64,000 nucleotides of DNA from a virus (IMGVR_UViG_2822641076_000001:57830-121829); one strand, 5' to 3'; counted from the stretch's first letter, positions 1,757-64,000 are shown. The notes: generated from the sequence alone by a model not told the origin. Program-made: numbers and translations.

Positions 1757-2968
1757 ATGGTGAAAATGTTATTTAAGGTTTCAAACGACAATGGTAATAG
1801 TGAGCAAGCATTAAAAGTAAATGGTGAGTTATTCACTCAACCAAATATCTATTCTATCGACCGTCCAAAAACAGTAGTTGAAGGAGACCCTTCATTATTC
1901 ATTCCTGCTTTAATGGACAACTTATACGTAACAATCACATCAAGTGCAATTGACCGCAATGGAGATTACTTCATTGGGAAACGTGCTTACAACTCAGATT
2001 ACGCACATTCTTTAACAATCACGAAGAGTGAAAAACATACATCAGATTTACCTATCATCAATACACTGGGCTTCCTAGCAGGCTTAGCAGTTAAGCAACG
2101 ATATGAAGAGAAGCAAGCACTTCCTAAGAGTATTGAACTTAACGTAGACATGGTAACAGCTCTACCTATTAAAGAATACGACGCAACTACGGCAAAAGCC
2201 TTTGAAGAGCGTTTTATGAATAATACACACGAAGTAATGGTTCACGTTGGTACAACATTCGTAAAAGTATCAATCACTTTCGAATTTGTTTATGCATTAC
2301 AAGAGGGTGCATGTGCAAACTACGCACTTATTCTTGATAACAAAGGTGGATGGAGAAACGATGATATTTTCGAAGAGTTAAAATGGGAATATCAATTAGA
2401 AAGCTTCACAGGTGAAGATGTGTTCAATATGAAAATGACTTGTGGAACTGATATCGGAGAGGGAACAACTGACGTTGGAATCCTAAAAGGATATAAACAA
2501 ATTGATGATTTAAGTGGTGGAGATGATTTAGGAGTTGGCTATGCAATCACTAAAGCTCTTCCAGTATTCAAGAAGGCAATGAGATTCCCTGCTTTAACAC
2601 GACATGAATACATGGAAATCGTAAAAGATTCAGATGATGCATTCCATGTAGAAGCAGTTGCTACACTGAAAGACAATTCATCAGACCAAGCAACGCTAAT
2701 TCATAAATTTGTTGAGCAATTAGTTGTTCATGGAGCTAGAAAACAACCTCGATTAATCTCTGTATTCGGTGGTGGTTCTATCACGCTGAAAGACAAGCTA
2801 TATAGCCCACTTAAAGCAGTTGCAGATGATTGCCGTGGTAAAATCTTATGGATTCCTGAGAAGTATGCTACAACAATCAACGTAGAAGGTATGGATGTAT
2901 TCTTAAATGTATTACTTCCACAACTTAAAGAACAACACATGGCTAAGAAAGAGAAGCAGAAGGCGTAA
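1757..2968 (+). CDS. actin-like ATPase of the ParM/Alp family (403 aa)
   Basis: Phosphate-1 motif SNDNGNSEQALK (DxGxxxxK), phosphate-2 motif GTDIGEGTTDVGI (DxGxGTTD) and adenosine motif VFGGGS. Size and motif order match the actin/ParM fold. Confidence 0.7.
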   Translation: MVKMLFKVSNDNGNSEQALKVNGELFTQPNIYSIDRPKTVVEGDPSLFIPALMDNLYVTITSSAIDRNGDYFIGKRAYNSDYAHSLTITKSEKHTSDLPIINTLGFLAGLAVKQRYEEKQALPKSIELNVDMVTALPIKEYDATTAKAFEERFMNNTHEVMVHVGTTFVKVSITFEFVYALQEGACANYALILDNKGGWRNDDIFEELKWEYQLESFTGEDVFNMKMTCGTDIGEGTTDVGILKGYKQIDDLSGGDDLGVGYAITKALPVFKKAMRFPALTRHEYMEIVKDSDDAFHVEAVATLKDNSSDQATLIHKFVEQLVVHGARKQPRLISVFGGGSITLKDKLYSPLKAVADDCRGKILWIPEKYATTINVEGMDVFLNVLLPQLKEQHMAKKEKQKA

Positions 2969-3010
2969 ATTACGTCTTTTGCTTTTGACTAACAGGAGGG
3001 TATTACAATT

Positions 3011-3586
3011 ATGAGTGCAACTAAAAAGGATAAACAAGTCGGTTCAACTATCATCTATAAGTTCGGAGTAGACGACCAAAAATTCGTTGATTGGTACAAT
3101 AACCAAGATAACTTCTCAGATTCATTCCGATTTGTTTTAGATTATTTCATGCAAAAGTTCGGGGATATAGACGTTAAAAAACTTAAACTTATGATAGAGA
3201 TGGGAATGGTCGATTTGGACAATCCTACACCTGTGCAAATACCAACTCCTGTCGCAAAAACACAAGTAACACCAGTACAAACACAATCTGAACCTGCTCA
3301 AGAGGTTGTAGAAGAAATAGCCTCAACAATTGAAGCAAAGACTGTGGAAGTTACAGAACCACCTCAAGAGCCTGTACAAGAGCCTGTACAAGAGGTTGCA
3401 GAGGAAGTTACAGAAGTAGAAGAAGAGAAGGTTAGCAGTTTAGATGTGCCAAAAGTTATTAAAGAGAAGCGTCAAGATGCTCAACCTAAACGAATAATTG
3501 TAGAAGAAAAACCAGTTGAAGTGAAGAAAGAAGCACCAGTAAGTAAGCCTGCTGTAATGCCTTCACTTGGTGATTTGAATAGATAA
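3011..3586 (+). CDS. acidic repeat protein, candidate DNA-binding adaptor of the actin-like system (191 aa)
   Basis: Immediately downstream of the actin-like gene, with a GGAGGG SD. About 70 aa of N-terminal globular sequence, then PVQ/EPVQE acidic repeats. The adaptor role is inference from alp7A/alp7R-type operon organisation. Confidence 0.35.
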   Translation: MSATKKDKQVGSTIIYKFGVDDQKFVDWYNNQDNFSDSFRFVLDYFMQKFGDIDVKKLKLMIEMGMVDLDNPTPVQIPTPVAKTQVTPVQTQSEPAQEVVEEIASTIEAKTVEVTEPPQEPVQEPVQEVAEEVTEVEEEKVSSLDVPKVIKEKRQDAQPKRIIVEEKPVEVKKEAPVSKPAVMPSLGDLNR

Positions 3587-3588
3587 AG

Positions 3589-3618
3589 GGGAGATTATTA
3601 TAATCTCTCTTTTTTTAT
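3589..3618 (+). terminator. rho-independent terminator (gggagatta...taatctct, then 7 T)
   Basis: 8-bp stem followed by a run of seven T immediately after the stop codon. Confidence 0.7.
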
Positions 3619-3628
3619 CCATAATCCA

Positions 3629-3657
3629 TTGACAGTGGATTATGGGATTGCTATACT
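3629..3657 (+). promoter_or_regulatory. sigma-A-type promoter TTGACA-17-TATACT (second copy of the early promoter family)
   Basis: ccattgacagtggattat...tatact is nearly identical to the copy at 1045-1073. Confidence 0.6.
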
Positions 3658-3732
3658 ATGAAAGTGCTAGAGATACGATTTGACAGGTAAAATCAAATGG
3701 TTACAAATTTCATTATGATTCTACAAATCTTC

Positions 3733-3757
3733 TGTTGCACAAATGTAATAAATAATG
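3733..3757 (+). promoter_or_regulatory. degenerate motif copy (acaaatgtaataaataatgtaaa)
   Basis: Matches the 21-bp motif at about 17 of 21 positions. Lies upstream of a weak TTGATT-18-TTATAA promoter. Confidence 0.3.
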
Positions 3758-3826
3758 TAAACTTGATTCAAGGCTTATTTTTTAATTTATAATGTGAACG
3801 ATATGCACATTAGAGGTGGTGAGAAC

Positions 3827-4084
3827 ATGACACATGTAGCGAACAGCATCATGCAAATGAAGGAATTGAACGCTAATGAAAAGCTGATTCTATTAGCTTT
3901 ATGTGTAGAAGGTAATGGTACTAAAGTATCAGTGGCACAAGACATCATAGCTGAAAGGTGTTCATTGACTCGTCGCAGTGTTATTAAATTCATCCAATCA
4001 TTAGAGGACAAGGGGTTCTTAAAGGTTTCACGCTCTGAATATAAGCGTGAGGGAAACATATATGAGCTTCACGTAGCACTATGA
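3827..4084 (+). CDS. winged-helix DNA-binding protein (85 aa)
   Basis: GAGGTGGTGA SD, then ATG at 3827 (internal to track ORF 3794..4084). The pattern LILLALC...VSVAQDIIAERCSLTRRSVIKFIQSLEDKGFLK is typical of MarR/DnaD-like wHTH domains. Confidence 0.5.
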   Translation: MTHVANSIMQMKELNANEKLILLALCVEGNGTKVSVAQDIIAERCSLTRRSVIKFIQSLEDKGFLKVSRSEYKREGNIYELHVAL

Positions 4085-4331
4085 TTGATGTGAGGAGCAA
4101 AAAAGACCATGAAAAAACCCATTCTCAAAGTTGAAATGGCGACCAACCAAAACTTTATGAATGGGTATTGGAGAGAGTTGTTTCTACGAAGCATCCCAAA
4201 AATGGAGCTTCACTCAAATGAGTAGATACAACACTCGTTAGCATTAGATTTGTATGTTTATAATATCATAAACAATGGGATAAGTAAATATGAGTGAAGC
4301 TCCTAGACAGCACATTTAGGAGGAAACACAG

Positions 4332-5339
4332 ATGGAAAATAACAAAGATTTATATGCAGGATATAAAAACGAACGATATCTCCACTACAGAGAGGTTCAT
4401 ACAGGACAATTCACAACTCAAAATACTAGAAATGGCTCAAGACGTGTACCAATTAGAGAGCAACGTATTGTAGAGTTCGAAGAGATTAAAGCATTGAATC
4501 TTAACTCAATTGGTGAATGTGTTCCTACATTAGATGCAGAAGACTTCACTATGATTCAAAACTATCTGTTAGACTTTTGGGGAGCTGTATTAGGTGCAGA
4601 TTGCATTCAAGTGTATATCCATCTAAGACGTCATGCTTACGGCAAAAAAGACTTCTGCTTCCCTGACATAGACACTATTGCATTGAAGATGAAGAAGAGT
4701 AAGAACTTTGTAAAAGGATGTCTAAAGACTCTAGAAGAGCATAACTTCATTGTCATCTTTAACAGACGTGATACAAAGGATAACAATCGCTCTGTGAGTC
4801 CTCTATTCAAGATTAGAAGGTTTGTTCCTTTATTAACCAATGAACTTTATGAAGAATTGCCTGCTAAACTAAAAAAAGACCATGATACATATATGGAAGA
4901 TTATAAGGATATTGACATTGCGACTAATGAGCTAAAAAACAGTAAAGTAATCGAAGGGTTAATTGAAAACGCTGAGTTATTTAGAAGCAAATCTCAGATT
5001 CGTGAAGCCAAAGAAAAGATTGCAGAAGAAAATAAAGCAACATACATAAGAGAAAAAATTGCTCCTGAGTACATCGAAGCAGGAGAGCAGATTCTCACAT
5101 CTCTTCAAAGCAGAATTTCTAAACCATCATTCGATGTTTGGTTTAAGGATGCTGTACTTGCATTAGATTCAGAGAAAAAATCAGTCTACGTGTTATGCGC
5201 CCATGACTTTGCTAAAACACACGTTCAAGATAAGTTTAAGACAATTATCGCTGAAGAAGTTGGAAAGCAAATCGGATTCAACGTAGAAGATACAACATAC
5301 ATATTCAAAACACACGATGAATATATCGTAGAAATTTAA
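4332..5339 (+). CDS. putative replication initiator or replisome organiser (wHTH, DnaD-like N-terminal region; 335 aa)
   Basis: TAGGAGG SD. The central segment YIHLRRHAYGKKDFCFPDIDTIALKMKKSKNFVKGCLKTLEEHNFIVIF resembles the wHTH of DnaD/phage replisome-organiser N-domains. It lies directly upstream of the iteron and DnaA-box array. Confidence 0.4.
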   Translation: MENNKDLYAGYKNERYLHYREVHTGQFTTQNTRNGSRRVPIREQRIVEFEEIKALNLNSIGECVPTLDAEDFTMIQNYLLDFWGAVLGADCIQVYIHLRRHAYGKKDFCFPDIDTIALKMKKSKNFVKGCLKTLEEHNFIVIFNRRDTKDNNRSVSPLFKIRRFVPLLTNELYEELPAKLKKDHDTYMEDYKDIDIATNELKNSKVIEGLIENAELFRSKSQIREAKEKIAEENKATYIREKIAPEYIEAGEQILTSLQSRISKPSFDVWFKDAVLALDSEKKSVYVLCAHDFAKTHVQDKFKTIIAEEVGKQIGFNVEDTTYIFKTHDEYIVEI

Positions 5340-9006: not shown

Positions 9007-9027
9007 ACAAGTGTAAAAAATAATGAA
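9007..9027 (+). promoter_or_regulatory. canonical 21-bp phage motif ACAAGTGTAAAAAATAATGAA (putative phage-specific promoter)
   Basis: Exact copy 9 bp upstream of the SD of the SSB-like gene. Confidence 0.5.
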
Positions 9028-37993: not shown

Positions 37994-38014
37994 ACAAGTG
38001 TAAAAAATAATGAA
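37994..38014 (+). promoter_or_regulatory. canonical motif copy followed by a cccctc-gtaat-gagggg hairpin (38020-38036)
   Basis: Same motif-then-hairpin-then-SD arrangement as at recJ. Confidence 0.5.
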
Positions 38015-38054
38015 TTTATCCCCTCGTAATGAGGGGAAGCGGAGGGAAAACACA

Positions 38055-38777
38055 ATGACAAAATTAAAGAAAAAGAAAAACTATTACAAAGCAGGCGAGT
38101 TAGTAACTCTAAAGGAAACTAAGGAGACTGTGAAAGTTAAAGATGTAAATCTTACTAGCTATGAAGCTACTGTTACATTCAAGGATGGCAAAGAGAAAGT
38201 TGTTAAGTTATGGGACATCCGTAAGTTGCCAATTCGCAAAGATTCTCACAAGGACACTGTGTTATTTGCACGAGTTCGTGAGGATGCAATTATCCCAACT
38301 AAGCGTGATGAAGATGCAGGATTTGATTTATATGCGAACCTAGAGACTGCACGAGTGGTTCAAGAAGGGGAAGAGCAAGTTCATGTACGTGAGCTATTGC
38401 TTCCAAAAGGTAGACCGACGTTAGTACCAACAGGTATTGCAACATCTATGCTTCCTAAGTACTACATGAATCTTAAACACGAACGTGGTTCTACTGGGAA
38501 AGTAGGCATGAACATTTTAAGTGGTGTCGTGGATAGTGGATACCGTGGAGAAATCTTCATCAATATCGTTCCTCTTTACAAGGATATCGTTCTTACATCT
38601 GCCGTAACAGAAGTTGAAGAGCATGAGAATATGATTCTTTACCCATACAACAAGGCTATTGCTCAAGCAACAATTGAGTATGTGCCACCAGTACGAGTGA
38701 AGGAAATTTCATTTGAAGAATTAAAAGCAATTCCGTCTGAACGTGGTGAAGGCAAGTTAGGTTCAAGCGGTAAATAA
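38055..38777 (+). CDS. dut: dUTPase with about 60 aa of N-terminal extension (240 aa)
   Basis: All five dUTPase motifs: AGFDLYA, ERGSTGKVG, GVVDSGYRGE, AIAQATIE and ERGEGKLGSSGK. GGAGGGAAAA SD before the ATG at 38055. Confidence 0.85.
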   Translation: MTKLKKKKNYYKAGELVTLKETKETVKVKDVNLTSYEATVTFKDGKEKVVKLWDIRKLPIRKDSHKDTVLFARVREDAIIPTKRDEDAGFDLYANLETARVVQEGEEQVHVRELLLPKGRPTLVPTGIATSMLPKYYMNLKHERGSTGKVGMNILSGVVDSGYRGEIFINIVPLYKDIVLTSAVTEVEEHENMILYPYNKAIAQATIEYVPPVRVKEISFEELKAIPSERGEGKLGSSGK

Positions 38778-38797
38778 AACTAGAGGAGCAATTACAT

Positions 38798-39253
38798 ATG
38801 GCATACGAAAATACAGGCGCAAAGAAGATTTATTTAGCATCACCTTTCTTCTGTGAGGAAGAAATTGAAAGAGTAGCATTCATGGAGAAGTTGTTACGTG
38901 AACAAGGATTCGATGTATTCTCTCCACGAGAAAATCAATTCGACCAGTACGAACTTTTCTCAAAAGAGTGGCGTGAAGCAGTTTACTTAAATGATATGAA
39001 ACACCTAATGGAAGCTGATATGGTAGTAGCTATTTATGATGGTGAAGGCGAAGGTTCTGACCAAGGAACAATCTTTGAAGTTGGAGCAGGTATCGTAGCA
39101 GGTAAATTTGTGATTGTATTCACAGAGAAGCATGATGGCATCAACTTAATGCTTACTGACTCTTGTCACGCATTCCTAAAAGGTCGTCAAGAAGCTCTAG
39201 ATTATGACTGGAAGAACCTACCGACTAACTACTGGCATGGCGGAGTTCGCTAA
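38798..39253 (+). CDS. nucleoside 2-deoxyribosyltransferase (151 aa)
   Basis: KIYLASPFF (NDT N-terminal motif) and the catalytic-Glu region DQGTIFEVGAG. Confidence 0.65.
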   Translation: MAYENTGAKKIYLASPFFCEEEIERVAFMEKLLREQGFDVFSPRENQFDQYELFSKEWREAVYLNDMKHLMEADMVVAIYDGEGEGSDQGTIFEVGAGIVAGKFVIVFTEKHDGINLMLTDSCHAFLKGRQEALDYDWKNLPTNYWHGGVR

Positions 39254-39321
39254 TTACTGTTAATTGCTGTGGGGCTTTATGCTCCACGGCTAATAAATAA
39301 CTAACATTAAGGAAGTGGGCG

Positions 39322-39993
39322 ATGGCTATTATCTGTGTAGGTGGAATGATTTCTTTAGGGAAATCTAGCATGGCTAAATTATTAGGTGAAACATTAGAAA
39401 GTGAAGTGTTCTACGAATCAGTAGACAACAACCCTGTATTGGAGCGATTCTATACAGCAAGCAAAGAGGAAGCAGAAGCAGAGCGCTTAACATTCCTATT
39501 ACAACTATGGTTCTTGAATACGAGATTTGATTCTATCAAGAAAGCCTTGATACATTCTCATAACGTATTAGACCGCAGTATCTATGAAGATATCTATTTC
39601 ATGAAGCGTAATCAGCAATATGGACGATTAATTGGAGAAAACCGCATTACTGATTTAGAGGAAACAATCTACATGGGACTCTTTGAGAACATGATGGAAG
39701 AGCTTGAGGAGTTACCAAAGAAATCTCCTGACCTTATGGTCTACCTAAAAGGAAGCTTTGAAACAGTATTATATAGAATCAAGCAACGTGGACGTGAGTT
39801 TGAATTAGATGAAAAGCTAATCGAGTACTACAGATTCCTATGGGAAGAATACGACGAGTGGGTAATGAAACACTACAAAGCTAGCGAAGTCTTAATCATT
39901 GATGTAGACAATCTAGATTATGTTCACAACGAAAAGGACAAAGAGTATGTAGTGAAGCTTGTAAAAGAGAAATTAGAAGAATTAGGTATCTAG
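39322..39993 (+). CDS. deoxynucleoside kinase (dAK/dGK family; 223 aa)
   Basis: P-loop ICVGGMISLGKSS, the DRS motif LDRSIYEDIYF, and the lid region RIKQRGRE. Confidence 0.7.
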   Translation: MAIICVGGMISLGKSSMAKLLGETLESEVFYESVDNNPVLERFYTASKEEAEAERLTFLLQLWFLNTRFDSIKKALIHSHNVLDRSIYEDIYFMKRNQQYGRLIGENRITDLEETIYMGLFENMMEELEELPKKSPDLMVYLKGSFETVLYRIKQRGREFELDEKLIEYYRFLWEEYDEWVMKHYKASEVLIIDVDNLDYVHNEKDKEYVVKLVKEKLEELGI

Positions 39994-40006
39994 GAGGAAA
40001 ATAGAA

Positions 40007-41197
40007 GTGCAGATTTTAATGTCAGTATTAGGTCTTATTGGTCTAATAGGATTAGCATTCTTGCTATCTGAAAATAAGAAGAAAATTAAGTGGCGAACAA
40101 TTGGAACGGCTTTAGCTATGCAATTCCTATTAGCCTACCTGCTAGTAACAAGTGCAGGTCAACAAGCAATGAAATGGTTATCGGATGGCTATACAAAAAT
40201 CTCAAGCTATGCAACAGATGGAATCATGTTTGTATTTGGCGGATTCTTTAATGAGCATACAACATTTGTATTTGCAATCAATGTATTGATGGTAATCGTA
40301 TTCTTTGGAGCGTTATTCGCTGTGTTATTCTATCTGAATGTCATTCAGTTCTTTGTTAAATATGTGGGCGGTGCATTATCTAAACTACTTGGTACTACAC
40401 GAGTAGAAACATTTAGTGCAGTTATGAATATCTTTGCCTCACAAAACGAAGTTCCGACATTCATTAAACCATATCTGAAACATCTGACGAAAGCAGAACT
40501 GTTCGCAGTAATGGTTGCAGGAACAGGCTCTATGGCAGGTTCAATCTTAATTGGATACAGCTTAATGGGTATCCCGTTAGAATGGTTGCTTGTAGCATGT
40601 TTCATGGTTACAGGTTCTAGTTTATTAGTGGCAAAACTAATTGTTCCCGAAACAGAGGAGAGCCAAACGAACGGCAAGATTGAGCTTGACCGTAAGCAAG
40701 GTTCAGCTAATATTTTTGAAGCAATTTCAAATGGTGCAATGAGCGGTATGCAAATTGCTTGTGCTACAGCTACAATGCTAATTGCTTTCGTAGCATTAAT
40801 TGCATTAGTAAATGGTATCTTAGGAAACTTTGGCGTATCACTTGAGCAGTTGCTTGGATACTTATTCTATCCACTTGCATTCCTAATGAATGTAAGCCAT
40901 GACCAAGTAATGACAGCAAGTCAATTATTAGGTCAGAAGTTCGCAACGAATGAGTTTATTGCTTATTCTGCAATGGCAAAAGAGATGTCACAGATGGATA
41001 CTCGTACAATTGCTATGTTAACTATTGGTATCGGTGGCTTCGCTAACTTCTCATCTATTGGTATTTTACTGGGAAGCATTGGTGTTCTTGTTCCTGAGAA
41101 ACGAGGTATTGTTGCTAAGTACGGACTTCGTGCGATTGTAGCAGGACTTTTAGCAAATTTAATCAGTGCAACTATCGTTGGTATTTGGTTGCTGTAA
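40007..41197 (+). CDS. nupC: concentrative nucleoside transporter, NupC family (396 aa, GTG start)
   Basis: At least nine predicted TM helices. CNT signature GQKFATNEFIAYSAMA (NEF[IV]AY). AGGAGG SD. Confidence 0.75.
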   Translation: MQILMSVLGLIGLIGLAFLLSENKKKIKWRTIGTALAMQFLLAYLLVTSAGQQAMKWLSDGYTKISSYATDGIMFVFGGFFNEHTTFVFAINVLMVIVFFGALFAVLFYLNVIQFFVKYVGGALSKLLGTTRVETFSAVMNIFASQNEVPTFIKPYLKHLTKAELFAVMVAGTGSMAGSILIGYSLMGIPLEWLLVACFMVTGSSLLVAKLIVPETEESQTNGKIELDRKQGSANIFEAISNGAMSGMQIACATATMLIAFVALIALVNGILGNFGVSLEQLLGYLFYPLAFLMNVSHDQVMTASQLLGQKFATNEFIAYSAMAKEMSQMDTRTIAMLTIGIGGFANFSSIGILLGSIGVLVPEKRGIVAKYGLRAIVAGLLANLISATIVGIWLL

Positions 41198-41299: not shown

Positions 41300-41332
41300 G
41301 TGTATACAAGGTTGAGGGAAGGAGTGAAATGG

Positions 41333-41863
41333 TTGAATCAAAAGCTCTTAAAGCTTTACAAGTATGGTTGGAGCTTGAGAGATATATCAGACGAGTTCGG
41401 TATTACCGAATCGGAGATTAAAGCAGAATTGTTACGTTACAAAAGTTCTAGTAGGGTTATCGGGAAGAAGTTAAGTGATGACTTCAAGATGTTCTTGATG
41501 GAGCGTTTTAACAACACGAATGAAACTTTATCGGCAATCGCAAAGTTGTTTGATATGTCGAACTCAACGATGACCAAGATTAATCGGGAATTTGGTACTG
41601 CTGAATCCAAGAAGGTCGAAGAGAATGAAGATGATGCATTCAAGCCGATTGACTGGGACAGTTGGGATACATGCCCGACATGTAAAGGTTCAAATGTAAA
41701 TCAACTAAACAACACATACATAGAAGAAGATATTGTGGAAGATAACAATATCTATAATTCCTATTGCCTTGACTGTCACACTGAGTGGTTATTGCATGAT
41801 GGAATAGTAAAACAAGTTGTTTGGGAATTGTTAGAGAGTGTAGAAGCTCTCGATGAAAATTAA
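41333..41863 (+). CDS. putative HTH plus C4 zinc-ribbon regulator (176 aa, TTG start)
   Basis: GAAGGAG SD 8 nt before the TTG at 41333. The track GTG at 41300 abuts the -10 box and cannot be the start. HTH-like SLRDISDEFGITESEIKAEL, and C-terminal CPTCKG...CLDCH. Confidence 0.4.
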   Translation: MNQKLLKLYKYGWSLRDISDEFGITESEIKAELLRYKSSSRVIGKKLSDDFKMFLMERFNNTNETLSAIAKLFDMSNSTMTKINREFGTAESKKVEENEDDAFKPIDWDSWDTCPTCKGSNVNQLNNTYIEEDIVEDNNIYNSYCLDCHTEWLLHDGIVKQVVWELLESVEALDEN

Positions 41864-54335: not shown

Positions 54336-54917
54336 ATGGCTGAATTGCAGTATATTCACACAACAATGAACGGTCGAAAATCAGCAGAGCTTATCATGCG
54401 AGTTTTCAGCTTACAAGGACAACAGAAAGAGGTTCTTGTATTCAAGCCAAAGTTAGATACACGAGATGGAGATGCAGTTAAATCACGAGCATTGGACACT
54501 GAAATTCCTGCAACATTAGTTGGTGGAGAAGAAAAAGGCAAGATGTTTGAATTAGCGAAGAAGCATCGTCCGCTTTACATCTTTGTTGATGAAGCTCAGT
54601 TCTTAACAACAGAGCAAGTACTAGAATTAGTAAGCATTGTTGATGAATTGAAGATTGATGTGTACAGTTATGGACTGCTAGTTGATTTCAGAGGAGTTCT
54701 ATTTGAAGGCTCTAAAGCATTAATTGAGAATGCTGATACAATCTCCGATATGCCTAACGTGTGCATCTATTGTACAAATAAAGCAATCCGCAACATGCGA
54801 TTACTTAATAGTAGACCAGTGTTCCACGGAGAAGTGGTTCAAGTCGGTTTCGAAGAGAGTTATCGTAGCATTTGTCGTGAATGCTATAACTCTTTCCAAG
54901 CTACCTCTCAAATGTAA
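54336..54917 (+). CDS. tdk: thymidine kinase with atypical P-loop and C-terminal zinc ribbon (193 aa)
   Basis: TK framework: LVFKPKLDTRDG, FVDEAQFL, GLLVDFRG and CxxC...CRECYNSF. The P-loop reads TTMNGRKSAELI where TK has GPMFSGKSTELI. Confidence 0.65.
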   Translation: MAELQYIHTTMNGRKSAELIMRVFSLQGQQKEVLVFKPKLDTRDGDAVKSRALDTEIPATLVGGEEKGKMFELAKKHRPLYIFVDEAQFLTTEQVLELVSIVDELKIDVYSYGLLVDFRGVLFEGSKALIENADTISDMPNVCIYCTNKAIRNMRLLNSRPVFHGEVVQVGFEESYRSICRECYNSFQATSQM

Positions 54918-58591: not shown

Positions 58592-59026
58592 ATGGGAGTA
58601 GATTATTATGTTTGTAAGAGTTGCGAGGACACATTCTCTGATTGCGGATACTTTGTAAGTTGTATTTGCGGATATCGTTGGTGTTGTGACGAATGTGCAG
58701 AGAATGATGGAGTTGTAGCCGAGTTTGATGAGAAGACTGGGGAGAAGCTTGATGAAAGTGAGACTTGTAAATTCTGTAGAAATGAAGATTTCACTGACTG
58801 GGAACTGTTCAAGTTTGCACGAGCATTACTAGGCAAGAGTCGTGAGGAGGTAGTCGAGCTTTATAAAGAGATGGGTAAAACTGAGCCTAAGACAGTAACC
58901 ATCTCAAAAGGAGAATATGAAGGATTACTAGAGAGCCAACACTTCTTAAATTGTCTAGAAGCAATGGGAGTAGACAATTGGGGCGGTTATGGTGATGCTT
59001 GCGAGATGTCTGAAAGGGAGGAATAA
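58592..59026 (+). CDS. Cys-rich hypothetical protein (144 aa)
   Basis: GGAAGAG SD. Many CxxC pairs (CKSCED...CICGYRWCCDECAEND...CKFC). Confidence 0.5.
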   Translation: MGVDYYVCKSCEDTFSDCGYFVSCICGYRWCCDECAENDGVVAEFDEKTGEKLDESETCKFCRNEDFTDWELFKFARALLGKSREEVVELYKEMGKTEPKTVTISKGEYEGLLESQHFLNCLEAMGVDNWGGYGDACEMSEREE

Positions 59027-59754: not shown

Positions 59755-60042
59755 ATGTATGAAATGGCGACCAACCATAAGGATAAAGACCAACCTTTTA
59801 GAATCACCGTCACTGGTGGAGATAAGCTTGAGTGTGTTAAACGTGTTATTGAGCTAGAAGGAAGAGGATATGAATGCATTAGACCAATCTTCGAAGTAGC
59901 CAATAGCGGTAAGATATACAGTTTTAAAGAAGATGGACTCAAACCAACTAGACTCAAGATGAGGAGCGGAGAAGGTGCGATGTTCAATCAAAAATGGATT
60001 GCAGTGATGCAAAAAGTTGAAGAGGTAAGTGAGGCAAGCTAA
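59755..60042 (+). CDS. hypothetical protein (95 aa; alternative ATG at 59764)
   Basis: AAAGGA SD. Confidence 0.5.
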   Translation: MYEMATNHKDKDQPFRITVTGGDKLECVKRVIELEGRGYECIRPIFEVANSGKIYSFKEDGLKPTRLKMRSGEGAMFNQKWIAVMQKVEEVSEAS

Positions 60043-60185
60043 TGACTGAATGTGATGATTTGAAGCGGAAATTAATAGAAGCTCTAGAGAGTTTAGACAC
60101 AAATAACCCGTTTCACCAAATGACAATCGGTTCACTAGCAGATGCTTTTAAATTATATGGATTGATAGATAGAAAGGATGACTAA
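60042..60185 (+). CDS. small protein (47 aa)
   Basis: TAATG overlap. Below the track cutoff. Confidence 0.35.
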   Translation: MTECDDLKRKLIEALESLDTNNPFHQMTIGSLADAFKLYGLIDRKDD

Positions 60186-60624
60186 CACAATGGATGCATT
60201 AAGTATTTGCAATGAGACAGTAAATCATCAAGTAGCAACTGAGGTTCTTGGATGGGAATTTAATTCAGAAGAAGGTTGTTATTATGAGGTTACATGTGGA
60301 GCTAAGTCACGAGTTATGGAAAAGCATGACTGGAATCCTATGATGAATATGAGTCAAGCTTGGAAAGTTATCGAGCGCCTTACAGCAAACGGCTTTGATT
60401 ACAGTATGGCTAGTGTCACAGAGGAAATGGCTGAGTTTCTTGAACTCGAAATGGCACAAGTAGGAGATACAATCTGTCGCATATACAAAGACACGAACTC
60501 CTTCTTTGTCACTGATTTGCAGGAAATCATAGCAAAGACTCCAATGGAATCCATTTGTGTAATGGGAATCAAATTAGCAAAAGGAGAGTCTTCTTGTGAA
60601 ACCATATGTAGACAAGGCTCTTGA
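60178..60624 (+). CDS. hypothetical protein (148 aa; alternative ATG at 60190)
   Basis: Track ORF. Confidence 0.45.
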   Translation: MTNTMDALSICNETVNHQVATEVLGWEFNSEEGCYYEVTCGAKSRVMEKHDWNPMMNMSQAWKVIERLTANGFDYSMASVTEEMAEFLELEMAQVGDTICRIYKDTNSFFVTDLQEIIAKTPMESICVMGIKLAKGESSCETICRQGS

Positions 60625-60826
60625 AATATTAGAGAACAAATTACAGGTAATCGAATACTCTCTTATTAGAGTCGAAACTGTGTATAATGCGTTTAAGGAT
60701 AACGAAGAAATTGAGAAGCAGGATTTTGAAGAAATTGAAAGACGCTATTTGTCTCTCAAGAACTCAAAAGGTGATTTACAAAATGCTCTTCGAATCTTAT
60801 ATGAGCAAGGAGTAACAAGGGTTTAA
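60596..60826 (+). CDS. hypothetical protein (76 aa, GTG start)
   Basis: AAGGAG SD 9 nt before the GTG. Confidence 0.45.
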   Translation: MKPYVDKALEILENKLQVIEYSLIRVETVYNAFKDNEEIEKQDFEEIERRYLSLKNSKGDLQNALRILYEQGVTRV

Positions 60827-60835
60827 TTTTTTACA

Positions 60836-60856
60836 ACAAGTGTAAAAAATAATGAA
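60836..60856 (+). promoter_or_regulatory. canonical motif copy upstream of the Prs-like gene
   Basis: Exact 21-mer abutting the SD (GAAGGAGAGGG). Confidence 0.5.
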
Positions 60857-60870
60857 GGAGAGGGAATGAA

Positions 60871-61680
60871 ATGATTAAGATTAATGGTGCAAGACTTGAT
60901 TTCTCAGAGTTTCCAAATGGTGAAACTAAAGTGGATGCAAAACTTATTAAAGCCAATGCTCATCCTACTAAGAATACCATCATGTTCAAATATGAAACAG
61001 ATGGAGATTTAATCAAATTAATGTTTGTTAAGAACTACCTAGACAATATGGGCTTAGATGCAGAATTGAAGATTATGTACATGCCTTACAGTCGTATGGA
61101 CAGAGTTGAAGGTGTTTCTGCATTTACTCTAAAGGATGTTGCAAACTTCATTAACAAGATGAAATTCAAGAAGGTCTATGTTTATGAAGCTCATTCAGAT
61201 GTAACACCTGCTCTATTAGACCGATGCGAGGTCATTGATTACTCTGAGCAAATTTTAGAGGATGTAATTGAAATCGTTGGGTTTGATGAGAAAAGAGATT
61301 ATGTTTTCTTCCCCGATGCAGGTGCATCTAAACGTTACAAGTCCGCTAAAAAGTATCGCCACCTTGTAGGTCACAAACAACGTGATTTCGATAGCGGAAA
61401 TATCGAAAGTCTTGAAGTGATGGGTGAAGTTGATGGCGCAGGATTCACAGCAATTATTGTGGACGACCTTTGCTCATTTGGTGGCACATTCTTTCGAAGC
61501 GCTACAGAGTTAAAGAAATTAGGAGCTTCTAGAATCTATCTAGTAGTCACTCACTGTGAAAACTCTATTTACAAAGGTGAGTTATTAAAGACTGATTTGA
61601 TTGATGGAATTTTTACAACTGACAGCATCTTGAATGAAGAAGAGTATGACGACAGATTGTGGGTGCGTCCATTACTATGA
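60871..61680 (+). CDS. prs: ribose-phosphate pyrophosphokinase (PRPP synthetase) family protein (269 aa)
   Basis: PRPP/PRTase-binding loop AIIVDDLCSFGGTF (VDDxxxTGGT type). N-terminal Prs-like fold (FSEFPNGETKVD..., KIMYMPYSRMDR resembling PYfgYaRQDR). Somewhat shorter than canonical Prs. Confidence 0.65.
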   Translation: MIKINGARLDFSEFPNGETKVDAKLIKANAHPTKNTIMFKYETDGDLIKLMFVKNYLDNMGLDAELKIMYMPYSRMDRVEGVSAFTLKDVANFINKMKFKKVYVYEAHSDVTPALLDRCEVIDYSEQILEDVIEIVGFDEKRDYVFFPDAGASKRYKSAKKYRHLVGHKQRDFDSGNIESLEVMGEVDGAGFTAIIVDDLCSFGGTFFRSATELKKLGASRIYLVVTHCENSIYKGELLKTDLIDGIFTTDSILNEEEYDDRLWVRPLL

Positions 61681-62159
61681 TTGAAATTGTAGAAGGCAAC
61701 TTATTAGATGCAACAGAGGATGCTATCGTACAGCAAGTGAATTGCCAAGGTGTGATGGGGAGTGGATTAGCTAAGCAGATTAGAGCTAAACATCCCGAAG
61801 TATACAAAATGTATCAAGCACATTGTGATGGTAAGAATCCACAGGCATTACTGGGAGATATTCAAGCTATATATCTTCGAGACGAAAACAGCAAACCTCA
61901 AGATGAGTATGAGTTCGTTGTGAATATCTTTGGTCAATTAAACTATGGACGAGAAAATGTTTTATATACAAATTATGATGCATTGCGTAAAGGCTTAGTG
62001 ACGCTCAGAGATGATGCTAGCGAATTAGGAGTATCAATTGCTATTCCATATAATCTAGGATGCGGTCTAGCTAACGGTGACTGGGATAATGTTGTTTATC
62101 CAATGATTCAAGAGATTTTCAAAGATTATGGTGTAACAATCTATAAATATAAAGGTTAA
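61677..62159 (+). CDS. macro-domain (ADP-ribose-binding) protein (160 aa)
   Basis: MIEIVEGNLLDATEDAIVQQVNCQGVMGSGLAKQI matches the macro-domain N-terminal consensus (G-D-I-T...IVNAAN...GGGV). ATGA overlap with the Prs-like gene. Confidence 0.7.
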   Translation: MIEIVEGNLLDATEDAIVQQVNCQGVMGSGLAKQIRAKHPEVYKMYQAHCDGKNPQALLGDIQAIYLRDENSKPQDEYEFVVNIFGQLNYGRENVLYTNYDALRKGLVTLRDDASELGVSIAIPYNLGCGLANGDWDNVVYPMIQEIFKDYGVTIYKYKG

Positions 62160-62174
62160 AAGGGGCTAATAATT

Positions 62175-63923
62175 ATGACAGACTTTATTCATTCAACTGA
62201 AATGGAAAACTTTCTTCCACCAACTTTACTGTGCGATTTCTACAAACTATCTCATCGCCCACAGTATCCGAAAGGTACAGAGGTAATCTATTCAACTATG
62301 ACACCACGTTCAAACAAACATATGCCTACGATTGATAAGGTAGTAGTATTTGAGATTCAATCATTCATCAAGGAGTTCTTAATTGGTTACTTTAACAAAT
62401 ACTTCTTTGCACGTAAGAAAGAAGTTGTCTTAGCAGAGTACGCACGAGTTATCAAATTCTGCTTAGGTGAAGAGAATCCTGACACAACTCATATTGCTGA
62501 GCTTCATGATTTAGGATATTTACCAGTACGAATCAAAGCTTTAAAAGAAGGTACGCTAGCACCAATGAAAGTTCCAGTGATGACTATCGAAAATACGATG
62601 CCAAAGTTCTTTTGGATTACTAATTACTTAGAAACATTACTTAGCACTGAGATTTGGCAAGGGATGACTTCTGCTTCAATTGCGTTGCAGTACCGTAAGA
62701 TTTTAAATGAGTACGCTATGAAGACAACTGGAAGCACTGACGGTGTTGTATTCCAAGGACACGATTTCTCAATGCGTGGAATGAGTTCTCTGCAATCAGC
62801 ACAGAAAAGTGGAGCAGGTCACCTATTATCATTCGTAGGAACGGATACTGTCCCTGCAATCTTATACTTAGAGCAGTTCTACAATGCAAACATCGAGAAA
62901 GAGCTTGTAGGAACGAGTATTCCTGCTACAGAGCATTCGGTAATGTGTGCGAATGGTCAAAATGAGTATGAAGTATTCAAGCGTATGATTACAGAGGTTT
63001 ACCCAAAAGGCTTTGTATCTATTGTTTCTGACACATGGGACTTTTGGAACATTGTCGGTGAGATTATTCCACGACTGAAAGAAGTAATTGAAAACCGTGA
63101 TGGTAAAGTTGTTATCCGTCCTGACAGTGGTATTCCTGAGGATATTCTTTGTGGCACTCATATCCCTGACCTTACAGGATTGAAATATGTAGATAACTTA
63201 GAAGATGCTAAAGAGTACTTCTATGAATATCTAATGGAAGAATTACGTGAAGATACTCCGCATGGTGAACATGGAGATACTGAAACGTCAGGGCAATTTA
63301 AGTTTGAAGGCAAATACTATGAATTAGACATCGAAGTTGAGTATGACCGTCATGACAAGCGATTCTACTACATTTGTGACGACAGAGTAAAACGTTTTGA
63401 AGAGTTCACTCCAAGTGTTGCAGATTTAGGATTAATTGAGGCACTTTGGAACATTTTCGGTGGAACTATCACAGAGCAAGGATACAAAGTATTAGCACCT
63501 TGTATCGGAGCAATTTATGGAGATGCAATCACATTAGAGCGTTGTAAAACAATTTGTCATCGTCTTGCAGAAAAAGGTTTCGCATCTACTAACGTAGTGT
63601 TCGGTATTGGTTCATACACATACCAGTTCAACACACGAGATACGTTCGGATTTGCTATGAAAGCTACATATGCAGTGATTAATGGCGAAGAAAAATTAAT
63701 CTACAAAGACCCGAAAACAGATGATGGTACGAAAAAATCTCAAAAAGGTCGAGTAGTAGTAATTGAAGAAGATGGCGAACTGAAATTAATTGATGGATTA
63801 AATAAAGAAGAGCAAGTAAGTTACTTTGGCAAAGACCAATTAGAGCAAGTATTCTTCAATGGTCAACTGCACCGTGACGAAAGCCTACAAGAGATTCGTG
63901 AACGAGTTGCAATGAACTTTTAA
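62175..63923 (+). CDS. nadV: nicotinamide phosphoribosyltransferase (Nampt/NadV family) (582 aa)
   Basis: Nampt signature GHDFSMRGMSS (DFGxRG type). The size and N-terminal FLPPTLLCDFYKLSH fit Nampt. Confidence 0.7.
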   Translation: MTDFIHSTEMENFLPPTLLCDFYKLSHRPQYPKGTEVIYSTMTPRSNKHMPTIDKVVVFEIQSFIKEFLIGYFNKYFFARKKEVVLAEYARVIKFCLGEENPDTTHIAELHDLGYLPVRIKALKEGTLAPMKVPVMTIENTMPKFFWITNYLETLLSTEIWQGMTSASIALQYRKILNEYAMKTTGSTDGVVFQGHDFSMRGMSSLQSAQKSGAGHLLSFVGTDTVPAILYLEQFYNANIEKELVGTSIPATEHSVMCANGQNEYEVFKRMITEVYPKGFVSIVSDTWDFWNIVGEIIPRLKEVIENRDGKVVIRPDSGIPEDILCGTHIPDLTGLKYVDNLEDAKEYFYEYLMEELREDTPHGEHGDTETSGQFKFEGKYYELDIEVEYDRHDKRFYYICDDRVKRFEEFTPSVADLGLIEALWNIFGGTITEQGYKVLAPCIGAIYGDAITLERCKTICHRLAEKGFASTNVVFGIGSYTYQFNTRDTFGFAMKATYAVINGEEKLIYKDPKTDDGTKKSQKGRVVVIEEDGELKLIDGLNKEEQVSYFGKDQLEQVFFNGQLHRDESLQEIRERVAMNF

Positions 63924-63932
63924 TTTTTAATA

Positions 63933-63953
63933 ACAAGTGTAAAAAATAATGAA
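63933..63953 (+). promoter_or_regulatory. canonical motif copy after the nadV stop
   Basis: Exact 21-mer at the window's 3' edge. Confidence 0.5.
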
Positions 63954-64000
63954 TTTACAGAGGTGTCCAAGTGATGCTTCTGTAAATAATAACAGAATGG

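Follow-up and report, generated by a model that had tools for sequence, protein, structure and literature searches.

A predicted NARP1-AP-type operon encoding Adps, macro and Namat proteins in a Bacillus cereus-group phage

A candidate NAD+ reconstitution operon

The viral DNA stretch IMGVR_UViG_2822641076_000001:57830-121829 (64,000 nucleotides, referred to here as the window) carries three adjacent, co-oriented genes on the + strand, which encode a Prs-like protein of 269 aa (open reading frame 1, ORF1; 60871-61680), a macro-domain protein of 160 aa (61677-62159) and a Nampt-like protein of 582 aa (ORF3; 62175-63923). Pfam detects Pribosyl_synth in ORF1, Macro in the second protein, and NAMPT_N with NAPRTase in ORF3, and the three proteins belong to PHROG families 619, 335 and 448, respectively. 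These genes probably constitute a NARP1-AP operon, that is, NAD+ reconstitution pathway 1 with an associated phosphatase, in a phage of the Bacillus cereus group. The operon has the gene order, the family membership and the conserved catalytic and specificity residues of such a system, and the enzymatic activities and counter-defense phenotype discussed below are predicted from these features. An earlier note on this DNA had proposed a NAD+ reconstitution logic with a Prs-derived ADP-ribose (ADPR) pyrophosphokinase and a Nampt-derived transferase, a proposal that homology and residue checks strongly support.

NARP1-AP is known from a single 2026 preprint, in phages of Vibrio, Pseudomonas, Acinetobacter and Pseudoalteromonas (Osterman et al., Jan 2026, bioRxiv 10.64898/2026.01.28.702374; hereafter the NARP1-AP preprint). 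This study showed that the RES-domain defense aRES converts NAD+ to nicotinamide and ADPR-1''-phosphate (ADPR-1''P), a product that is unusable by NARP1, and that about 15% of NARP1 operons contain a macro-domain gene. In Vibrio phage Gary, the adps–macro–namat operon overrides aRES only with all three genes intact, and the purified Gary macro protein, named Adpp, converts ADPR-1''P to ADPR. The preprint counts a macro gene as part of NARP1-AP when it lies within two genes of the NARP1 operon; in the window, the macro gene lies between adps and namat.

In the pathway proposed for the window, host defense would first cleave NAD+, with TIR, SIR2 and SEFIR NADases yielding ADPR and nicotinamide and aRES yielding ADPR-1''P and nicotinamide. 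The macro protein, as Adpp, would then strip the 1''-phosphate to give ADPR; Adps would move the beta-gamma pyrophosphate of ATP onto the 1''-OH of ADPR to form ADPR pyrophosphate (ADPR-PP); and Namat would couple nicotinamide and ADPR-PP directly to NAD+, so that a nicotinamide mononucleotide (NMN) adenylyltransferase would be unneeded. Putative aRES genes are recorded for B. cereus genomes (Table S2 of the NARP1-AP preprint), which makes a source of ADPR-1''P plausible in this host group. Given these genes, the NAD+ arms race in Gram-positive hosts probably includes the ADPR-1''P branch as well.

The Gary operon and the window operon share PHROGs 619, 335 and 448 in identical order, with tight adps–macro coupling in both, and the window proteins keep both the catalytic Lys of Adps and the catalytic His of Namat. 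They differ in that the window's host is a Firmicute, identities are only 30% for Adps, 35% for the macro protein (across 147 aligned aa) and 43% for Namat, the macro protein has Gln19 in place of His24, and it falls in another subclade. The earlier note had regarded the macro insertion as a new variation. This claim does not hold, because gene order and all three PHROGs agree with those of the Gary operon, and the window's macro protein is homologous to Adpp, with shared motifs and a macro-type fold model; the arrangement has thus already been published and tested as NARP1-AP. With the mechanism published, what the window adds is modest: the host group, the Gln in place of His24 and a mosaic macro gene. 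A word search of one table, the list of NARP1-linked macro proteins in the NARP1-AP preprint, returned no phage of Bacillus, Staphylococcus, Listeria or Paenibacillus, and on this search the window operon looks like the first NARP1-AP example from a Firmicutes phage. The counter-defense targets named in the earlier note (Thoeris, DSR, SIR2-HerA and SEFIR) would still apply, although by analogy the two core genes alone would counter them, and aRES, the documented target of the macro protein, was not on its list. For annotation, such genes should read Adps, Adpp and Namat.

The first gene groups with Adps

The evidence argues strongly that ORF1 (adps; predicted ADPR pyrophosphokinase, PHROG 619 at 4e-74) belongs with Adps and not with Prs, as judged from identity, profile scores and residues. 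First, when 50,697 phage records were searched with ORF1, the top match was SPbetaL1 Adps (52-53% identity, 2e-74), the enzyme that defined the reaction from ADPR to ADPR-PP (Osterman et al. 2024). ORF1 is also 49% identical to the Adps of FADO, a phage that is sensitized to DSR2 by deletion of its NARP1 operon. Second, a profile derived from the Adps proteins of SPbetaL1, FADO, Gary and ICP1, all four of them studied by experiment, scores 266 bits on ORF1 versus 89.5 bits on E. coli Prs. With the Prs model TIGR01251, ORF1 reaches 90 of the 113 bits required, and its scores with all NCBIfam Prs equivalogs are likewise far under the respective cut-offs.

Third, the short length of the Prs homolog, already remarked on in the earlier note (269 aa versus 315 aa for E. 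coli Prs), is explained by the missing C-terminal module of Prs. ORF1 ends about 20 residues past the TTDSI motif, where Prs runs on for about 40, and lacks the alpha11-alpha12 regulatory/filament module. Loss of this C-terminal extension is a feature of Adps (PMC13586617).

Fourth, functional residues are conserved. They were mapped by applying the numbering of the ICP1 paper (PMC13586617) to the ICP1 sequence, with Adps taken from isolate 2019_Dha_I; a sequence search of the PDB with ORF1 for an Adps structure matched only Prs entries. F14, R75, H108, D149, K169, D198 and D199 of ORF1 correspond to ICP1 F18, R87, H121, D161, K185, D212 and D213. Bacillus-phage Adps proteins, the characterized SPbetaL1 enzyme among them, all lack the loop that holds ICP1 F92. 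Lys169 (codon 61375-61377, + strand) aligns with the catalytic beta-hairpin Lys of ICP1 (Lys185) and Gary (Lys192): K185A abolishes ADPR-PP formation in ICP1 Adps (PMC13586617), and K192A is the Adps-inactivating mutation of the Gary operon (NARP1-AP preprint). The VDDLCSFGGT motif reported earlier is present at aa 197-206, and the pyrophosphate (PP) loop DDLCSFGGTF (aa 198-207; 61462-61491, + strand) aligns with ICP1 D212-F221 and with DDLSSFGGTF of SPbetaL1.

The third gene groups with Namat

The case that ORF3 (namat; predicted nicotinamide ADP-ribose transferase, PHROG 448 at 7e-203) belongs with Namat and not with Nampt or NadV is similarly strong. Among solved structures its best matches are 9w5w and 9w5x (E ~1e-213), whose aligned chain has the sequence of SPbetaL1 Namat, versus ~1e-64 for Nampt entries. 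ORF3 is 66-68% identical to SPbetaL1 Namat versus 30-31% to three phage NadV proteins without an Adps neighbor. Compared to SPbetaL1 Namat, it keeps D21, Y23, F198, R201, D224, H254, R315, D317 and G449-D450-A451, so that the ligand residues for nicotinamide, ribose and phosphate are all conserved together with the catalytic core, His254 and Arg315 included. The DFSMRG motif of the earlier note stands at aa 197-202. His254 (codon 62934-62936, + strand) is the catalytic, phosphorylatable His and corresponds to Gary His243, which is replaced in H243A, the Namat-inactivating mutation of the Gary operon (NARP1-AP preprint).

An adenine selectivity-clamp motif found only in Namat has the form GS-X-Phi1-X-Phi2-X-Phi3-TRD with an aromatic X (PMC12774641). 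The clamp helix of ORF3, GSYTYQFNTRD (aa 479-489; 63609-63641, + strand), fits this Namat-only consensus. At the same site the three phage NadV outgroups have GGGLLQEVTRD, GGALLQDLQRD and GSWGFLKN.SRD, from which the Namat motif is absent. Thus both core genes fall in the clades that the earlier note had proposed to distinguish by phylogenetic placement, ORF1 with Adps and ORF3 with Namat, by identity, profile and residues.

These same comparisons bear on a conventional salvage route, in which a true phosphoribosyl pyrophosphate (PRPP) synthetase and a nicotinamide phosphoribosyltransferase would make NMN, the host would complete NAD+, and the macro protein would be a passenger. Such a route is suggested by the Pfam and PHROG names (Pribosyl_synth, "ribose-phosphate pyrophosphokinase" and "nicotinamide phosphoribosyl transferase"), and Namat does keep some PRPP-dependent NMN synthesis in vitro (PMC12774641). 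However, ORF1 fails all Prs equivalog cut-offs while its score with the Adps profile is three times higher, ORF3 has the adenine clamp that NadV proteins lack, and generic family names have been shown to be misleading for the Adps/Namat clade. Nor was an NMN adenylyltransferase partner detected in the window, as the earlier note had also stated: tblastn with one phage cytidylyltransferase of the NMN adenylyltransferase type gave no significant match (best E 0.14, within the ORF of the nucleoside transporter), and none turned up when about 10 further ORFs of the window were scanned with Pfam, the window being about 64 kb of a genome of about 153 kb. Conventional salvage is therefore very improbable.

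Other NAD+-restoring pathways, NARP2 (NadV and NatV of KVP40) and NARP3 (PnuC and NadR), resemble the proposed pathway in that NAD+ is restored during infection, but they use other chemistry and other genes, and NadV-type proteins are without the Namat clamp. NARP2, or canonical Prs with NadV, was rejected on the failed Prs cut-offs, the presence of the clamp and the lack of a detected NMN adenylyltransferase in the 64-kb window. NARP3 was rejected since the three genes are unrelated to PnuC or NadR, although no search of the window was aimed specifically at these two.

The two-gene NARP1 operons of SPbetaL1, FADO, Tsamsa and vB_BcoS-136 encode the nearest relatives of the window's Adps (47-53% identity) and Namat (60-68%), with the same type of PP loop (DDL[SC]SFGGTF) and clamp motif. 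The window operon differs from them in that their adps is directly followed by namat, with no macro gene between. The two genes are immediate neighbors in 97% of the Adps clade, and in the window they are parted only by the 483-bp macro gene. The namat gene also carries an 87-aa insertion (aa 329-415; 63159-63419, + strand) relative to SPbetaL1 and FADO Namat, both of which are without it. The insertion is common to the Tsamsa and vB_BcoS-136 proteins, and a shorter one occupies this site in Gary Namat. Among sibling phages, no other part of namat varies as much as the 87-aa insertion (82-90% nucleotide identity), and a Pfam search with it found no domain. Because Tsamsa and vB_BcoS-136 combine the insertion with plain two-gene operons, it is not tied to the macro gene.

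As a separate observation, the namat gene of ICP1 isolate 2019_Dha_I (positions 2001-3473 of locus L016) has an in-frame stop near the N-terminus of the protein (…EVTHV*SNF…), and the deposited coding sequence begins downstream. NARP1 may be inactivated in this isolate.

The macro protein and its likely activity

The second gene (61677-62159, + strand) is the adpp candidate, and the specific activity of its product is likely that of an ADPR-1''P phosphatase, as judged from its family and its operon. The protein matches PHROG 335 at 3e-45 (Gary Adpp, 1.3e-49) and is 41% identical to the NARP1-linked macro protein of Pseudomonas phage JG004. It has in common with the Gary and JG004 proteins the motifs NC..MG.G (NC..MGSG), GQ..Y/W (GQ.NYG) and GCGLAxGDW, and its AlphaFold model has a macro fold with a predicted local distance difference test score (pLDDT) of 92. 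The earlier description as an "ADP-ribose binder or hydrolase" was thus right about the macro domain and too vague about its role, which is documented as that of an ADPR-1''P phosphatase acting against aRES.

Several observations weigh against NARP1-AP as the identity of this operon. First, Gln19 of the window protein (codon 61731-61733, + strand; the position of His23 in Poa1p) takes the place of Gary His24, the one residue with a demonstrated requirement in Adpp. H24A is the Adpp-inactivating mutation of the Gary operon and abolishes anti-aRES activity (NARP1-AP preprint). Second, the window protein is nearer to the glycohydrolases DarG and TARG1 than to Poa1p, the ADPR-1''P phosphatase of yeast, both by sequence and by fold. 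It matches the PADLOC DarG model at 5e-25, with no PADLOC match beyond this DarG macro model, and the NCBIfam model antitoxin_DarG at 1.4e-21, and Foldseek ranks DarG (5m31, 5m3i, 7omu) and TARG1 first and Poa1p 14th. Third, a neighbor-joining tree puts the window protein with macro proteins from Firmicutes, most of which do not adjoin NARP1, and splits it from the Gary/JG004 Adpp clade with 98% bootstrap. Fourth, the clamp loop of ORF3 fits loosely with the published rule, which calls for an adenine-stacking Arg, or for Lys or Tyr followed by a stacking residue. This loop reads R45-S-N-K48-H49, with Lys at the position of SPbetaL1 Arg40 and then His where relatives carry Tyr; adenine stacking by His49 is plausible.

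On the first point, the corresponding column in 129 family members contains His in 99 and Gln in 30 and no other residue, and the macro protein in the same slot of a sibling operon (JAUCEM010000005.1, locus L020) has His. These data suggest that Gln19 is a tolerated natural alternative to His. Nevertheless, the absence of the His lowers confidence in the predicted phosphatase activity, while leaving room for it. Poa1p is named in the NARP1-AP preprint as the closest characterized homolog of Adpp. It shares the macro fold with the window protein (TM-score, template modeling score, 0.73-0.74 against 6LFQ-6LFU), and the N-terminal substrate-binding segment aligns, but identity is 17-20%, and His23 and Ser30 of Poa1p are replaced by Gln19 and Val26. 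The titles of PDB entries 6LFQ-6LFU list structures of the Poa1p mutants H23A, S30A and F152A.

The second and third points raise the alternative that Adps and Namat form NARP1 while the macro protein acts as a DarG/TARG1-type ADP-ribosyl glycohydrolase, which would strip ADP-ribose from phage DNA, or from protein or RNA, that a defense ADP-ribosyltransferase such as DarT has modified, so that NARP1 could recycle the freed ADPR. DarG macro domains are its nearest curated families, and DarG and human TARG1 give the best matches to it in both sequence and fold when solved structures are compared; most of its close relatives are unlinked to NARP1, and relatives lie near NADAR genes in FADO, in JBLCPR010000006.1 (locus L024) and at 5 of the 80 top-ranking IMG/VR loci. 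NADAR proteins are guanine de-ADP-ribosylases. Other findings speak against this alternative. The PTKKHW loop of DarG, which holds the DarG catalytic Lys, aligns with GQLNYG in the window protein, and all 129 family members compared carry the Gln of this motif (Gln87; codon 61935-61937, + strand). In addition, the DarT-binding C-terminal domain is absent from the 160-aa protein, compared to 329-338 positions in the DarG models. The similarity to DarG is itself family-wide and non-discriminating, because Gary Adpp, a proven phosphatase, also matches the DarG model (3e-12). A glycohydrolase of this type is accordingly unlikely. Membership in a DarTG system was rejected on the same length, on the replacement of the PTKKHW lysines by GQLNYG, and on the neighbors, which are adps and namat and not darT.

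Linkage and mosaic structure of the macro gene

Macro relatives of the window protein are found with NARP1 in several arrangements. Of the 80 best IMG/VR loci with macro relatives, 16 carry Adps and/or Namat no more than 4 kb from the macro gene, and the orders among these loci include Namat-macro-Adps, macro-Adps-Namat and Adps-Namat-...-macro. This repeated and variously arranged co-localization argues for a shared pathway. On the other hand, the closest phage relatives (Geobacillus E3, SPbetaL8 and FADO) do not adjoin NARP1, and in at least 10 Bacillus phages, FADO, vB_BcoS-136, PJN02, Kirov, PBC2 and the Thrax phages among them, NARP1 and the macro gene are 24-37 kb apart, unlike in the window. 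Linkage to NADAR recurs as well. In JBLCPR010000006.1, a contig of Bacillus type (4001-8462 of L024), the order is macro, an 82-aa ORF, RNase T, NADAR, Adps, a 58-aa ORF and Namat; in FADO (3201-4477 of locus L002) a NADAR-type gene, COG3236, is found two genes away from the macro gene; and in the 5 IMG/VR loci noted above NADAR lies within 4 kb of the macro relative. NADAR may be a further ADP-ribose-releasing partner.

Comparison with JAUCEM010000005.1 showed a sharp change within the macro gene. Adps and Namat of this sibling are 98.5% and 95% identical to the window proteins, and nucleotide identity is 94-100% across adps and namat. Within 61771-62070, in the 5' two-thirds of the macro gene, identity falls to 48-68%, and it returns to 97% in the last 128 nt. 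This dip identifies the macro gene as a recombination mosaic. The replaced part includes the His/Gln site, so that a His-type allele has been exchanged with a Gln-type allele. Natural alternation of His and Gln, together with a mosaic macro gene in a conserved operon, offers a route to tests of macro-domain specificity.

A second alternative is that the macro protein turns some other free ADPR derivative, such as O-acetyl-ADPR or the cyclic ADPR (cADPR) signal of Thoeris, into ADPR for NARP1, as a front end similar to RyDEP. In the RyDEP-extended NARP1 operon of mycobacteriophage DyoEdafos, an inserted accessory gene likewise makes linear ADPR for Adps and Namat, although it encodes a RyR domain and not a macro domain and acts on the 2'/3' cADPR signals of Thoeris and not on ADPR-1''P (PMC13232231). 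ADPR-making accessory genes thus recur in NARP1 operons (RyDEP and Adpp), and the change from His to Gln with the mosaic of the substrate-binding two-thirds may point to an altered substrate. Promiscuity for ADPR-1''P and O-acetyl-ADPR is common among macro domains. Yet these alternative substrates are candidates only, and the occurrence of His and Gln alleles in an identical operon slot is more simply read as functional equivalence, which makes a changed substrate decidedly unlikely.

Taken jointly, linkage and mosaicism allow a tentative and unlikely reading in which the macro gene is an exchangeable adaptor cassette at the front end of NARP1, and not a fixed phosphatase, with alleles that differ in the ADPR derivative they feed in. 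The macro gene could have been recruited into the Bacillus operon independently of the Vibrio/Pseudomonas Adpp clade, and recombination could swap the His- and Gln-type substrate-binding two-thirds while adps and namat stay 95-98% identical. Inputs could include ADPR-1''P from RES enzymes, O-acetyl-ADPR and ADP-ribose removed from DarT-modified DNA. If this reading is true, NADAR and RyDEP would be further adaptors of one NARP1 hub. NARP1-AP, with the macro protein as phosphatase, remains the preferred assignment for the window.

Layout and expression of the operon

The three genes lie as the earlier note had described them, adjacent and coupled behind a copy of a repeated motif. The stop of adps and the start of the macro gene share an ATGA overlap (61677), through which adps and adpp are translationally coupled, and the macro stop is followed after a 15-nt gap, with an AAGGGG Shine-Dalgarno sequence in between, by the start of namat. 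The start of the macro gene is most likely the ATG at 61677 (MIEIVEG...), rather than the upstream GTG at 61659 given by a mechanical ORF listing, because the resulting 160-aa protein is identical to one in public gene calls (P0001, "Appr-1-p processing protein [Bacillus thuringiensis]") and homologs begin at that Met.

Upstream of the operon lies an exact copy of the promoter-like 21-mer ACAAGTGTAAAAAATAATGAA (60836-60856, + strand), followed by the ribosome-binding site GAAGGAGAGGG (60854-60864, + strand) ahead of adps. The next exact copy (63933-63953, + strand) marks the start of the following transcription unit, and the three genes therefore sit between consecutive copies. With up to 3 mismatches, the window contains 31 copies of the 21-mer, every one on the + strand, versus 0 expected by chance. 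The 21-mer is a predicted promoter, and the three genes would be expressed as a single unit from this phage-specific element. Within 60000-64000, a sigma-70 scan found sites no more frequently than in shuffled sequence and none at the 21-mer, and a terminator scan found no + strand terminator-like site within the three-gene cluster.

The 31 sites span positions 53 to 63953 and lie just upstream of genes, for example at 9007, 10124, 12786, 24153 and 33337 and further at 37994, 52921, 55369, 58554, 60836 and 63933. Elsewhere in the window, an ORF at 41300-41863 has a weak match to Sigma70_r4 and could encode a phage sigma factor that reads the 21-mer.

Carrier element and neighboring genes

The INPHARED-derived collection of 50,697 phage records contains no near-identical phage. 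The best nucleotide matches there are 71-75% over parts of namat (Tsamsa, vB_BcoS-136 and SPbetaL1), and almost nothing in the 25 kb upstream of the operon matched the collection. The macro protein is found 100% identical on one 152.6-kb JGI contig. The same Adps-macro-Namat order is kept on at least 4 further B. cereus-group contigs, among them independent contigs of about 150 kb from assemblies of B. cereus, B. thuringiensis and B. bombysepticus. Since it recurs on independent contigs of this group, the arrangement is not due to chance.

The window contains a module of phage type for replication and nucleotide metabolism, with a DnaB-like helicase, RecJ, ribonucleotide reductase, DNA ligase and the alpha subunit of DNA polymerase III, and appears to be part of a large (about 150 kb) phage of the B. 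cereus group, possibly a phage-plasmid. The latter lifestyle is suggested by genes for a partition protein (1757-2968; PHROG 691) and a replication-initiation protein (4332-5339; PHROG 26369) on an element that is found as separate contigs of about 150 kb.

A nucleoside-salvage block at 38010-41197 comprises a dUTPase-like gene, a nucleoside 2-deoxyribosyltransferase, a deoxynucleoside kinase and a nucleoside transporter of the NupC/CNT family (PF07662, 1.6e-62). A phage-borne concentrative nucleoside transporter is unusual. A thymidine kinase gene lies beyond this block at 54336-54917.

Candidate anti-defense genes were found around the operon and around its relatives. In precomputed annotation, an 83-84-aa gene about 1.5 kb past the window end in sibling loci (L011, 7730-7984; L020, 7717-7968) is assigned to PF26126 (Had1, Hachiman anti-defense); our own Pfam scan of this gene, with a library copy that is possibly older, reproduced no match. 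If the Had1 annotation is real, the region is an anti-defense island. In JAUORE010000003.1 (locus L015), the operon exists in a four-gene version, where an extra 156-aa ORF (3516-3986) without a firm family assignment separates adps from the macro gene, and a gene annotated as Acb5 (PF26761) lies about 1.6 kb downstream of namat. Near the operon in the window itself, a 144-aa protein (58592-59026), likely an anti-defense protein, has a C-terminus that matches the RecBCD-inhibitor domain of T7 gp5.9 (PF25708, 1e-18).

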